Source of the DNA: Thermoleophilaceae bacterium
GTDB lineage: Bacteria; Actinomycetota; Thermoleophilia; Solirubrobacterales; Thermoleophilaceae
DNA: 64,000 nucleotides
Assembly: GCA_044867325.1 (NCBI GenBank)
Contig: JBIOUS010000012.1
Span: forward strand, 11,771-75,770
Direction of reading: 5' to 3'
Shown here: positions 3,129 through 43,009 of the stretch, piece after piece
Layout of the letters: each line of letters starts with the position of its first letter
Position numbering within the stretch: position 1 is the stretch's first letter
The notes under the pieces: generated by a model
What the model saw: only the letters and a program-made list of their open reading frames with translations
Databases searched by the model: none
Told to the model about the DNA's origin: nothing
Program-made: the position numbers and the translations under genes

Positions 3129-3772
3129 GCGTCGTCGGCAGCGGACAGCGCGATCGTGTCGGGATCCTCGGCGGCGCGTTCAACCCGCCACATCTCGGTC
3201 ACCTCTGGCTTGCGCAGGAGGCTCACACCCGGCTCGGCCTCGACCGCGTCCTGCTGGTGCCGTTCGGAGAGCCACCGCACCGTGTGCTCGACGCCGACCC
3301 CGGCCCGCGGGAGCGGCTACGGCTCGCGCAGATCGCCGCGAGCGACGACGACCGCCTCGTCGTGTCGCCGATCGAGACCAACCGCTCCGGTCCGTCCTAC
3401 ATGGCCGACACACTGACCCTCTTGAGAGAGATCGAGCCTGCCGCCGAACTGATGCTGATCTTGGGCGCCGACCAGGCGATGAAGCTGCGCAGCTGGCATG
3501 AGCCGGAGCAGGTCTTGGAGCTGGCGCGGCTCGCGGTCGCCGACCGCGGCGGTGTGGGGCGCGACGATGTCGCCGCCGAGCTCGACGGGCTAGCGGGCGC
3601 CGACGCGATCGAGGGCTTCGAGATGCCGCGGATCGAGGTCAGCTCGACGCTTGTCCGCGCGCGCGTCGCCGCCGGCCTTCCGATCCGCTACCTCGTGCCG
3701 GATGCCGTCGCCGAGCACATCGCGACGACCGGCCTCTATCGCGCAGCCTCCGGCGTGGAGGCCGCCCGATGA
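3125..3772 (+). CDS. nadD: nicotinate-nucleotide adenylyltransferase
   Basis: 'GILGGAFNPPHLGHL' matches the (H/T)xGH motif and 'IEVSSTLVRARV' is ISST-like. The start overlaps the proA stop by 4 nt. Confidence 0.9.
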   Translation: MSVVGSGQRDRVGILGGAFNPPHLGHLWLAQEAHTRLGLDRVLLVPFGEPPHRVLDADPGPRERLRLAQIAASDDDRLVVSPIETNRSGPSYMADTLTLLREIEPAAELMLILGADQAMKLRSWHEPEQVLELARLAVADRGGVGRDDVAAELDGLAGADAIEGFEMPRIEVSSTLVRARVAAGLPIRYLVPDAVAEHIATTGLYRAASGVEAAR

Positions 3773-27202: not shown

Positions 27203-27999
27203 TCCGGCTGGCGATCCGCGCCCCGGCGGCCGACGCCGAGCTGGTGCTGGCGGCGCTGCTCGAGCTCGCCCCATCCGGCGTTGAGCAAGTTGATGGTGTC
27301 GACAGCGTCGAGTTCGCCGTCTACGGGGCGCCCGGCGAGCTGCCGGAGCTCGACGAGGGCGAGGCCGAGGTCGGCGGCATACGCGTCACGGTCTCCGGCG
27401 AGGAGGTGCCCGACGACTGGGCCGAGCGCTGGAAGCGCTTCCACACGCCGATCCTCGTCGCCGACCGCCTCTACGTCCGTCCGCCTTGGGAGGAGGCGCC
27501 GGTCCGGCCGGGCGTGATCGACCTGAGAATCGATCCGGGCCGCGCCTTTGGCACCGGCGCTCACGCGACGACCCGGCTCTGTCTCGAGCTGTTGGCCGGC
27601 CTCGACGGCAAGGGCTCGTTCTGTGACCTCGGCTGTGGCTCCGGCGTGCTGGCGATCGCCGCCGCCAAGCTCGGCTACGGACCGATCGAGGCCGTCGACT
27701 CCGACCGCCTCGCCGTCGACGCGACCAACCTCAACGCCCGCGACAACGGCGTTGCGCTCGACGTCGTGCGGCGCGCCAACCTGCGCGAGGAGGCGCCGCC
27801 ACGCGCCGACACGATCGCTGCCAACCTGATGCGCCCGCTGCTGCTGCAAGTCGCCAAGCTGATCGATCACCGCCCCAACGGCCTGATCCTCTCCGGCCTG
27901 CTCGACCACGAGGCCGACGAGGTAGCCGCGGCCTTCGCCCCGCTCCAGGAGCAGCGCCGCCTGTCCGATCGTGGCTGGACTGCGTTGCTCTTGACTTAG
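27199..27999 (+). CDS. prmA: ribosomal protein L11 methyltransferase
   Basis: 'IDPGRAFGTGAHATTRLCLE' and the SAM motif 'DLGCGSGVLAIAAAKLG' are present. The position after dnaJ is conserved. Confidence 0.9.
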   Translation: MIRLAIRAPAADAELVLAALLELAPSGVEQVDGVDSVEFAVYGAPGELPELDEGEAEVGGIRVTVSGEEVPDDWAERWKRFHTPILVADRLYVRPPWEEAPVRPGVIDLRIDPGRAFGTGAHATTRLCLELLAGLDGKGSFCDLGCGSGVLAIAAAKLGYGPIEAVDSDRLAVDATNLNARDNGVALDVVRRANLREEAPPRADTIAANLMRPLLLQVAKLIDHRPNGLILSGLLDHEADEVAAAFAPLQEQRRLSDRGWTALLLT

Positions 28000-28003
28000 C
28001 GGG

Positions 28004-28102
28004 GCTAGCGGAGGCGCGCAGCCGGACCGGTCCAAGTACCGCGTGTCGCGGCTAGCGGGAGCGAGGTCCGGTGAGTACCGCAGCATGGATTAGTGTCGCG
28101 CC
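28004..28102 (+). repeat. copy 1 of a ~100-nt conserved intergenic element (second copy at 42694-42794), ending at the ATG of the cupin gene
   Basis: Block 1 (28007-28033, AGCGGAGGCGCGCAGCCGGACCGGTCC) matches 42694-42719 at 26 of 27 positions. Block 2 (28055-28086, GCGGGAGCGAGGTCCGGTGAGTACCGCAGCAT) matches 42741-42772 at 30 of 32. The spacer between blocks is 21 nt in both copies. Confidence 0.7.
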
Positions 28103-33261: not shown

Positions 33262-34145
33262 GCGCTACTCGGGCGGGGTTCATCGCGCTCGCCGGGCGGC
33301 CGAACGCCGGCAAGTCGACGCTCGTCAACCGGATCGTTGGCGACAAGGTGGCGATCGTCTCCGACAAGCCGCAGACGACGCGGCGTGAGATCCGCGGCAT
33401 CGCGACCGGCGACGACTGGCAGTTGGTCTTGGTCGACCTGCCCGGCGTCCAGCGGCCACGCGATCCGATGACCGAGCGGATGCAGCACCGCGTCGAGCAC
33501 GCGCTGCGCGATGCCGACGCGATCCTCTTCATGCTCAACGGCGCGCAGCGGATCGGCCCCGGCGACCGCTACATCGCACGAGCGATCCGCTCGTCCGGCG
33601 TTCCGACCGTCACCGCCGTCAACAAGGTCGACAAGCTGCGTAGGGCCGAGACGGCGGCGGCGCTGACCGCGGCCGTGGGGCTCGACGTTCCCGGCGACGT
33701 CTTCCCGATCAGCGCGAAGTCGGGCGACGGCGTCGAGCCGCTCGTCGAGCACCTCGTCGGTCTGCTGCCCGAGGGTCCGTGGCTCTACCCGCCAGAGGAC
33801 AGCTCCGATCAGCCAGAGCACGTCCAGATCGCCGAGCTGGTGCGCGAGCAGGTGCTGCGCCGCACGCGTGAGGAGCTTCCGCACGCCGTCGAGGTCGAGG
33901 TGACGAGCATCGCCGAGCGCGAGACCGGCGTGCTCTGGGTCGAGGCGAGCATCTGGGCCGAGAGCGAGTCGCAGAAGGGGATCCTGATCGGGGGCGGCGG
34001 CCGGATGGTCAAGGCGGTTGGGACGGCGGCGCGGGAGCAGATCGAGGCGGTGTTGGGGCGGCGCGTTCATTTGGAGTTGCGGGTTCGGGTGCGGCGGGAT
34101 TGGCGAGCTGATGATGCTCTTTTGGACCGGCTGGGGATTGAGTAG
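33258..34145 (+). CDS. era: GTPase Era
   Basis: G1 is 'GRPNAGKSTL', G3 is 'DLPG' and G4 is 'NKVD'. The KH domain shows 'I..E..SQKGI.IG..G..VK'. Confidence 0.95.
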   Translation: MSATRAGFIALAGRPNAGKSTLVNRIVGDKVAIVSDKPQTTRREIRGIATGDDWQLVLVDLPGVQRPRDPMTERMQHRVEHALRDADAILFMLNGAQRIGPGDRYIARAIRSSGVPTVTAVNKVDKLRRAETAAALTAAVGLDVPGDVFPISAKSGDGVEPLVEHLVGLLPEGPWLYPPEDSSDQPEHVQIAELVREQVLRRTREELPHAVEVEVTSIAERETGVLWVEASIWAESESQKGILIGGGGRMVKAVGTAAREQIEAVLGRRVHLELRVRVRRDWRADDALLDRLGIE

Positions 34146-41903: not shown

Positions 41904-42694
41904 GCACGGCCGGGGCGGTTTCCGGGGCGCAGCGGATCGAAGCGGCCTTCGCCGGTCACGGCAAGCGCGCTGCGCTGATGCCCTATCTGATGGGCGGCTA
42001 TCCCTCCGTGGACGAGTCGCTGGCCGCGGGGCTGGCGGCGGTCGACGCCGGCGCCGACCTGATCGAGCTTGGGATCCCGTTCTCGGATCCGCTCGCCGAC
42101 GGGCCGGTCATCCACGCCGCCGGTACGGCCGCCTTGGAGGCCGGGGTCACGCCGAGCGACGTGCTTGCCGTCTGCAAGAGCCTCTCGGAGCGCGTTCCCG
42201 TCGTCCTGATGGTCTACGCAAATATCGTCTTGGCGGACGGCACCGACAGATTCGTACGTGAGGCTGCCGCGGCCGGCGCGGCCGGGCTGATCGTCCCCGA
42301 CATGCCGCAGGACGAGGCGGCGACCACGCGCGCGGCCTGCGACGCCGCGGGCCTGGCGCTGGTTCCGCTGGTCGCCCCGTCGAGCACGCCCGAGCGAGTC
42401 GCCGAGATCGGTCGTCAGGCGCGCGGCTTCGTCTACGCGGTATCGCTTGCTGGCACGACCGGCGAGCGCGCCGAGCTGCCACCCGAGTTACCGCGGATGG
42501 TCGAGCGGATTCGCGCGGCGACCAGCGTCCCGGTAGCGGTCGGCTTTGGCATTTCCACCGGTCCACAGGCCGCCTCCGTCGGCGATCTCGCCGACGGAGT
42601 CATCGTCGGCAGCCGCATCGTGCGCGCCGCCGGCGAGGGCGGGGCGGACGCCGTCGGCGAGGTCGTCGCCGAGCTCGCCCGAGCGCTTCGGTAA
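41900..42694 (+). CDS. trpA: tryptophan synthase alpha chain
   Basis: The TTG start overlaps the trpB TGA. '[11 protein letters not shown]', '[21 protein letters not shown]' and 'GFGIS' are present. Confidence 0.94.
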
Positions 42695-42794
42695 GCGGAG
42701 GGCGCAGCCAGACCGGTCCGAGGGCGACGCCACGATGCTCGCGGGGGCGAGGTCTGGTGAGTACCGCAGCATCATCCGATAATCTGCCGCGCCC
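42694..42794 (+). repeat. copy 2 of the conserved intergenic element (see 28004-28102), ending at the ATG of a 62-aa membrane protein gene
   Basis: Blocks 42694-42719 and 42741-42772 match copy 1, with the same 21-nt spacing. A GATAAT hexamer at 42778-42783 lies 11 nt before the ATG. Confidence 0.7.
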
Positions 42795-42983
42795 ATGATC
42801 GTTCTAGTCACCCTCACCTTCGGCCTCGTCGTCTGGATCGTCGCCTGGGCCTTCGGCATCAAGGCTTTCGACGCGTTCCTGTTCACCGGCTTCGTCGCGC
42901 TCGCGGCCGCCGCGGTGCGGATCGCGATGCCGTTCGTGAAGCAGATCCTGACCGGCAAGACAGCGGCGCCGGGCGAGCAGTAG
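42795..42983 (+). CDS. small hypothetical membrane protein (2 TM helices, 62 aa)
   Basis: It has two hydrophobic helices, 'IVLVTLTFGLVVWIVAWAFGI' and 'FLFTGFVALAAAAVRIA', and GC3-biased codons. I recognise no family. Confidence 0.5.
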   Translation: MIVLVTLTFGLVVWIVAWAFGIKAFDAFLFTGFVALAAAAVRIAMPFVKQILTGKTAAPGEQ

Positions 42984-43009
42984 CCGCACTCTTCCTAGAA
43001 TCGGCGGCT

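Follow-up and report, generated by a model that had tools for sequence, protein, structure and literature searches.

Repeats of the TRIT, Correia and REP (repetitive extragenic palindromic) families shape the 3' ends of mRNAs (PMC3152330, PMC13714241). TRIT, the tuberculosis Rho-independent terminator motif (Gardner et al. 2011), has 147 copies in M. tuberculosis, is conserved in both sequence and structure, is centered on stop codons, and is bidirectional (PMC3152330). It is reported to be restricted to Mycobacterium (PMC3152330) and, like the Correia repeat, it is now thought to be a 3'-end element that is processed by RNase III (PMC13714241). Here we analyze an intergenic element that occurs twice in 64,000 nucleotides (nt) of DNA from a Thermoleophilaceae bacterium (contig JBIOUS010000012.1 of assembly GCA_044867325.1, positions 11,771 to 75,770; we call this whole stretch the window), once after prmA and once after trpA. 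Both elements belong to a dispersed repeat family and are not gene-specific regulators. We think it likely that they are copies of a dispersed, non-coding, hairpin-forming family of the REP, MITE (miniature inverted-repeat transposable element) or TRIT kind, which is confined to the Thermoleophilaceae.

TRIT of the mycobacteria is the closest actinobacterial precedent. Both are multi-copy hairpins of Actinobacteria that are conserved in sequence and structure, lie at or overlap stop codons, are found in both directions, are restricted to one lineage, and lack a canonical U-tract. Our element differs from TRIT in its abundant presence/absence differences among species, its head-to-tail arrays, and its two size classes (60 and 85 nt). 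We liken the two by TRIT's published profile and not by sequence homology, and TRIT is reported in Mycobacterium only. The REP, BIME and REPIN elements of Proteobacteria are also short, GC-rich, imperfect palindromes with tens to hundreds of copies, which are extragenic, lie at the 3' ends of genes or between cistrons, and form arrays. As with our element, their copy number varies strongly among relatives, and strand-specific recognition of the hairpin is expected. However, the genomes that we tested have no gene for RAYT (a Y1 HUH transposase), the arrays of our element are direct and head-to-tail instead of inverted doublets, there is no GTAG-type head, and the unit is longer, with invariant internal loops.

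The Correia elements of Neisseria and the MITEs that duplicate TA (RUP and the IS630/Tc1 type) are inverted-repeat elements of about 100 nt that insert at TA and duplicate it, and they too show presence/absence differences between close species. Their transcripts contain hairpins that are substrates for RNase III and that alter the expression of neighboring genes. In contrast, the arms of our element are only loosely inverted repeats, its duplication is not uniformly TA, and we identified no parent insertion sequence or IS630-like partner. Also, the asymmetry of its G:U pairs points to a single-stranded fold rather than to double-stranded terminal repeats. Mycobacterial interspersed repetitive units (MIRUs) are actinobacterial as well: they are intergenic units of 40-100 bp within operons, they form head-to-tail arrays of variable number, and their ends overlap the stop and start codons of the flanking genes. 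Whereas MIRUs follow the orientation of the operon and contain small, coupled open reading frames (ORFs), our element has no ORF, is found in both orientations, and is defined by its hairpin.

The two copies, and the arms of a helix (P2) within each of them, are:

28007..28090, + strand: repeat copy 1, between the prmA stop codon and a cupin gene; matches our covariance model at 28003-28096 (91.9 bits, E = 2e-22)
28021..28028, + strand: 5' arm of helix P2 of copy 1 (GCCGGACC); pairs with 28065-28072, according to RNAalifold and the pair counts over 72 copies, and is also in the minimum-free-energy fold
28065..28072, + strand: 3' arm of helix P2 of copy 1 (GGTCCGGT); the closing pair is G:U (alignment and fold)
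42694..42779, + strand: repeat copy 2; matches the covariance model at 42690-42782 (80.4 bits, E = 2.5e-19)
42707..42714, + strand: 5' arm of helix P2 of copy 2 (GCCAGACC); the A at 42710 has its compensating T at 42755
42751..42758, + strand: 3' arm of helix P2 of copy 2 (GGTCTGGT; alignment and fold)

The stop codon of prmA is at 27997-27999, and copy 1 begins 7 nt further on. It has a core (AGCGGAGG...CCGCAGC) and then an ATGGAT tail. The last A of the trpA stop codon (42692-42694) is the first A of copy 2. The ATG of a small gene lies 12-15 nt past both copies: a cupin gene follows copy 1, and the gene for a 62-amino-acid (62-aa) protein follows copy 2 (15 nt from its end). PrmA, TrpA and the cupin were assigned by Pfam, and the 62-aa protein has no Pfam family. 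An earlier note, made from the sequence alone, had described copies at these two positions with two conserved blocks that are 21 nt apart, and reading and aligning the window bore this out. Block 1 is AGCGGAGG(C)GCGCAGCC[G/A]GACCGGTCC in both copies; after the 21-nt center, block 2 is GCGGG[A/G]GCGAGGTC[C/T]GGTGAGTACCGCAGCAT. The 17-mer GGTGAGTACCGCAGCAT occurs 2 times in the window, versus 0.11 expected, and none of 100 shuffles had two matches, so the resemblance of the copies is not due to chance. When we scanned the window with the covariance model, we found exactly these two copies, and the next match had only 14.7 bits. The earlier note could not match the element to a known riboswitch, and likewise, we found no Rfam family over it (in a gathering-threshold search of the whole window and an E-value search of 42500-43000).

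The rest of the window's own genome (an assembly of 2.52 Mb in 84 contigs, with 69% G+C) contains five further full copies, which we found by BLAST on other contigs. This makes 7 full copies, and there are also a degenerate copy and two solo 3' remnants. Among relatives, a DNA search found the element in 10 of 41 genomes, with at least 28 copies in G015 (OY970313.1), which is a complete genome of 2.6 Mb. So the earlier note's two copies are not the only ones, as the element is multi-copy both in its own genome and in relatives. We then built a covariance model from 72 distinct aligned copies. It has matches in 36 of the 45 genomes from the genus, including 43 copies in G015, 46 in G022 and 43 in G049, while 9 of the 45 have no copy at all. 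Across the order, the model's matches are in one family only: in most genomes of the window's own genus, in nine genomes of a second genus, and as two stray single matches. Similarly, the hosts in a pattern scan of GTDB genomes were soil metagenome-assembled genomes (MAGs) of the Thermoleophilaceae/Solirubrobacterales. Matches in other phyla were to the 20-nt pattern by chance and not to the element. One full copy was filed under Acidimicrobiaceae, but its flanks are 89% identical to the window's own genome, so it is probably mis-binned. We also rejected carriage by phages, because two patterns had no match in a collection of viral contigs.

The family has two forms. In more distant genomes, it is 60-61 nt long (AGGGGAGGAGCGCAGCCGGAAC-NNN-GUUCCGGCGAGCACCGCACC), with the same stem and a 3-nt loop, and it is often in direct clusters. 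This short form is found in two genera of one family. The 85-nt form is the same hairpin with about 36 extra apical nt, and it is limited to about eleven close relatives. In G015, there are direct head-to-tail arrays of two to four units with a period of 85-86 nt.

These arrays (at 928510-928861, 51114-51293, 1136646-1136824, 602795-602976 and 737543-737715 of G015) have identical centers among their units and lack TA where the units join. Local slippage or unequal crossing-over seems to have produced them, as for variable-number repeats of the MIRU type. In G022, G049 and G051 (L198-L213), the 60-nt form is found in mosaic clusters with partial units. Some of these have an extra 5' arm nested in the loop, which gives 87-nt variants, and tails such as GGAGATTCTCCGGCGAGC restart the 3' arm. 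This recalls the composite arrays of BIMEs. Also, in soil metagenome run X4, the summed contig depth across window positions 28034-28095, over the 3' half of copy 1, is 250-350, as compared to 15-80 in the flanks, which implies that the repeat is abundant across related organisms in an unrelated soil sample.

We aligned 72 copies with MAFFT and used RNAalifold to obtain the consensus fold, which is one long imperfect hairpin. Over the 72 copies, 98.1% of cells at the pairs are paired. In 41 cells, both partners have changed, versus 9.1 ± 2.2 in shuffles (0 of 500 were as high) and 3-6 if the partner is slid by 1-3 columns. For example, pair 25:68 is CG in 46 copies, UA in 22 and GC in 1; pair 21:72 is CG in 66, UA in 3 and AU in 2; and pair 19:74 is GC in 59, GU in 10 and AU in 3. 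The helix pairs also ranked top in an unbiased scan of mutual information. Between the two copies in the window, the earlier note had spotted a compensatory change (G:C in copy 1, A:T in copy 2). This corresponds to alignment columns 22:71, which are GC in 63 of the 72 copies and AU in 7, and the conserved helix around it (CCRGAYC/GRTCYGG) shows real covariation over the further copies. The short form has compensations of its own: CCGGAAC/GUUCCGG, CCCGAUC/GAUCGGG, and an outer pair that changes from C:G to G:C.

The hairpin is also asymmetric between the strands. Seven of the helix pairs (six of which are variable) include G:U and not one includes A:C, and the + strand folds better than its complement by 4-7 kcal/mol. 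This indicates that one strand is under selection to fold.

The base of the stem is almost invariant, with GGAGGNGCGCAG on one side and CGAGYACCGNAGC on the other, and with symmetric GGA/GNA and GCA/GA internal loops. In the 8-bp helix above it, the pairing is kept and the sequence is free to vary. What is conserved is not the 10-bp palindrome (GGACCGGTCC): about one third of the copies have a broken GACCGGTC palindrome (GGATCGGTCC), for which block 2 compensates. The center drifts even at orthologous sites, and it is missing from the 60-nt form. According to the earlier note, the 21-nt centers were unrelated, and the helix enclosed a variable hairpin. Instead, the center belongs to the family too but is less constrained, with a mean pairwise identity of 0.49 (as compared to 0.84 for the blocks) and with conserved CG dinucleotides. 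We rejected the central hairpin, as the folding energy of the center is no better than that of shuffled sequences (mean z = +0.08). Two other structures were also rejected. In some minimum-free-energy folds, GCUGGA pairs with UCCGGC instead, yet this pairing does not covary. By inspection, the 2b/2n positions of the GCA/GA loop do not fit a kink-turn.

Using the 62-aa protein and the cupin as probes, we fetched the orthologous junctions from relatives. The element is absent from all 28 relatives that have the trpA-to-62-aa locus and from all 7 that have the prmA-to-cupin locus, and at these empty junctions, the genes are 12-25 nt apart. Contigs from an independent soil metagenome, of a relative with roughly 90% identity, have both sites empty too: one contig joins 27994 to 28091 (at the prmA junction), and another joins 42667 to 42775 (at the trpA junction). 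Because the junctions are empty in every relative we examined as well as in the metagenome contigs, these sequence comparisons indicate that both copies in the window are insertions specific to their own lineage, flanked by duplicated TA(R).

For copy 1, the filled site reads CGGGGC-TA-[GCGGAGG...GCATGGAT]-TA-GTGTCGCG, and the empty site in relatives reads GCGGGG-TA-GTGTCGCGG. For copy 2, the filled site is GCGCTTCGGTAA-[GCGGAGG...CATCATCCGATAA]-TCTGCC, and the empty site in relatives is GCTCCGATAA-TCTGCC (as a whole, GCTCCGATAATCTGCC). Comparing the filled and empty sites gives these duplications:

28006..28007, no strand: left TA of the copy 1 site
28091..28092, no strand: right TA of the copy 1 site, which is the start of a pre-existing TAGTGT hexamer
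42692..42694, no strand: left TAA of the copy 2 site, which is the trpA stop codon
42780..42782, no strand: right TAA of the copy 2 site, which is the start of a pre-existing TAATCT hexamer

At copy 2, there is also a longer, imperfect duplication (TTCGGTAA at 42687-42694 versus TCCGATAA at 42775-42782).

We also compared the flanks of the relatives' copies to the window's own genome by BLAST, which gave 44 orthologous sites. The window's genome also carries the element at 2 of them, while about 4 hold remnants and about 38 are empty in it (with flanks that are 80-96% identical). The remnants take the form of a degenerate copy or of a solo 3' end (AGCGAGCACCGCAGCTA), apparently from a deletion between AGCG repeats. 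Of 9 clean junctions, 5-6 have a duplicated TA, TAG or TAA.

The two solo 3' remnants in the window's genome (C34:~3745-3770 and C32:~33985-34000, with GCGAGTACCGCAGCTATGGCTCA and TAGCGAGCACCGCAGCTA) are at sites where relatives have a full copy, and they resemble deletions between the 5'-end AGCG and the 3'-arm GGCGAGC. This genome also has diverged copies that fall below the threshold, at C15:24380-24450 and C45:~1570-1650. One diverged copy has a CCGAACC/GGUUCGG helix and a degenerate 5' block, and the other reads GGAGCGCAGCCGG...GATCCGGCGAGCACCGGACC. In G010 (L074), the element lies inside the loop of an older, GC-rich, terminator-like hairpin (ACGGGCGGCC-AAC-GGCCGCCCGT). The same hairpin is intact, without the element, in the window's genome (C1:26536-26578).

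To describe where the element is found, we considered 78 distinct copies, with genes called by a simple filter on ORFs and on G+C content at third codon positions (GC3). The 3' end of a gene is within 40 nt of 51 of the 78 copies. The median distance is 13 nt from the element's 5' end to a stop codon on the same strand and 4 nt from its 3' end to a stop codon on the opposite strand. More than a dozen copies overlap a stop codon, either with their first AG or with their tail (which then has TCA or CTA on the given strand). Between co-directional genes, there are 23 sense and 22 antisense copies, and another 18 copies are between convergent genes. Divergent regions, with 5-7 copies, are depleted (7/73 versus 25% expected, P = 0.002). 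Some copies are between cistrons inside operons, such as an ABC-transporter operon in G015. Among the 7 copies in the window's own genome, three lie where genes converge, and one sits antisense between two + strand genes. According to Pfam, the neighbors of these copies are unrelated in function: PrmA, cupin, TrpA, a YbaK-like editing protein, NadE, a penicillin-binding protein, a GT4 glycosyltransferase, and MMPL transporters. The mixed orientations and the unrelated neighbors rule out a leader or riboswitch for a coherent set of genes.

If these are copies of a dispersed repeat, they might have spread via a single-stranded or strand-specific intermediate, with an enzyme that recognizes the invariant base of the stem. 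Such recognition during spread would account for arms that remain conserved and paired next to an apical stretch of 24 nt that drifts. Copies would persist only where they are harmless, that is, at the 3' ends of genes, where the element often supplies or overlaps the stop codon. If TA is the preferred target, then the placement at stop codons would also reflect where TA is located in a genome with 69% G+C. The conserved arms and their pairing would be the trace of selection for propagation or for recognition by a factor, and the apex would be unconstrained.

When transcribed, the hairpin (roughly -37 kcal/mol) probably acts as a 3'-end structure, by analogy to the known systems. It could be a barrier to 3' exonucleases, a substrate for RNase III, or a partial terminator. 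By the same analogy, the trp and prmA transcripts probably gain a stable 3' hairpin from the copies in the window. This would insulate those transcripts from the downstream small genes, which would keep their own pre-existing TANNNT hexamers.

Several results weigh against a mobile repeat of this kind. There is no uniform target-site duplication, as the other clean junctions have TCAC, CCTC, or an imperfect duplication of 6-8 nt, and the tandem arrays lack TA at the unit joints. We did not find near-identical dispersed copies at different places, so no recent burst is visible. Our gene calls, from the ORF and GC3 filter, are crude. A search of sequencing runs found the element, whose host organisms are uncultured, in soil DNA runs only, with no RNA run that has the locus, so every effect at the RNA level is inferred. 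And candidate partners for mobilizing it were rejected. The transposase families we tested were Y1/RAYT and IS4/IS5 DDE. The Y1/RAYT transposase (PF01797) was absent from all 24 genomes of the genus that were searched, although it was detected in control genomes, which disfavors a RAYT or IS200 partner. Reverse transcriptase (RVT_1), as expected for retroposition, was absent from the window's own genome, from G015 and from the 43-copy G049, and it does not track copy number. An IS4/IS5 partner had been suggested by the TAR duplication, but the DDE transposase (PF01609) was absent from the window's own genome and from G049, and it did not correlate with copy number. As for a parent element, the window's own genome has no longer element that is bounded by the same 5' and 3' blocks. 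In G015, with dnaA at ~100 kb, 19 of 34 loci are co-oriented with replication, which is no bias and argues against lagging-strand insertion in the style of IS200/IS605. (GC skew from short loci was too noisy to be of use.) Finally, the ORFs between neighboring G015 copies include nothing that resembles a transposase, and the genes there seem to form ordinary operons, although these genes were not searched with Pfam.

The base of the stem, with its tandem internal loops of the G/A type, is almost invariant, is read on one strand only, and is kept in two genera. It is conceivable, but we would not bet on it, that it is the recognition site of a dedicated factor. One candidate would be an enzyme that mobilizes REP-like hairpins and has no relation to RAYT, IS200 or reverse transcriptase; another would be a factor of the host's RNA processing that marks where genes end in the Thermoleophilaceae, which are not known to have U-tract terminators. 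If true, this would be a new system of a hairpin and its enzyme, and not merely another repeat.

The alternative that survives best is that the element is not selfish DNA but a gene-end signal that is selected by the host: a sequence-specific terminator or 3'-end processing site, which would be read by a host factor such as RNase III, with its spread being incidental. We consider this unlikely. Only 2 of the 44 orthologous sites are shared, and 9 of the 45 genomes from the genus are free of copies; and the two orientations are equally frequent, even though only one strand folds without mismatches. Also, the hairpin is not followed by a U-tract. Still, a host signal would fit with the tight link to stop codons on either side and the depletion from divergent promoter regions, with the invariant sequence of the stem base across two genera, with the copies between cistrons in operons (as in the ABC-transporter operon of G015), and with the one element that lies in the loop of a terminator-like hairpin older than itself. 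This is also the profile of TRIT (PMC3152330, PMC13714241).

The strand-specific folding does not depend on the orientation of the neighboring genes, and a conserved scaffold holds a 24-nt center that changes rapidly. Both would be expected for a family of independently transcribed small RNA genes whose variable apical segment is a guide or target-recognition loop. But the copies have unrelated sequences upstream and hence no promoter in common. The center drifts even at orthologous sites, is identical within tandem arrays, and is wholly missing from the widespread 60-nt form. This makes small RNA genes improbable.

The earlier note's other idea, a promoter or operator at the DNA level that is shared by leaderless mRNAs, has TANNNT hexamers 6-9 nt before both ATGs in its favor, and these are conserved in relatives. 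However, the -10-like hexamers (TAGTGT; GATAAT/TAATCT) are part of the flank: they are outside the inserted segment and were already present at the relatives' empty sites. Block 2 is not at a fixed distance from the hexamer, as the two copies differ by 4 nt in this spacing. The would-be operator, the GACCGGTC palindrome, is not conserved, while the pairing with block 2 is. And many copies are between convergent genes, so we find a promoter or operator very improbable. Least plausible of all is the cis-regulatory RNA (a riboswitch or leader for the small downstream genes) that the earlier note proposed: the covarying helix is real, and both copies in the window are upstream of and co-oriented with small genes, but 4 of the 7 copies in this genome have no co-oriented downstream gene, sense and antisense copies are equally common (23:22) with functionally unrelated neighbors, the element is missing upstream of the orthologous genes in all relatives examined, and the poorly conserved apical region implies that there is no ligand pocket, with no Rfam match either.

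For genome annotation, this removes a false lead to a riboswitch or promoter. More broadly, the covariance model flags several hundred intergenic hairpins in MAGs of Thermoleophilaceae as repeats, instead of as candidate regulatory RNAs. The family is also an actinobacterial addition to the few known repeats at stop codons that are conserved in sequence and structure (TRIT, REP and Correia). With its covariation, strand asymmetry, two size classes, and many filled and empty sites, it is a tractable case for finding the factor that reads a hairpin.

The hexamers before the small genes are of interest in their own right. The TANNNT hexamer is at 28091-28096 and 42780-42785 in the window and is also present at the orthologous sites (L139-L143 and L169-L174). 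In several species, TAGTGT or TAGGGT before the cupin gene and TAATCT before the 62-aa gene are conserved 6-9 nt upstream of the ATG, while the spacer varies. Neither gene is preceded by a Shine-Dalgarno sequence. Going by sequence, the conserved hexamers are consistent with both small genes having leaderless mRNAs, for which they would be the -10 boxes. In two relatives that are more distant, the spacer is longer and contains AAGGAG instead.

Inside trpA, at 42605-42636 on the + strand, there is a weak match to Rfam's DnaX frameshift hairpin (22.8 bits, as compared to a gathering score of 35; E = 0.0085). This is most likely a chance match to a GC-rich hairpin in the coding sequence.

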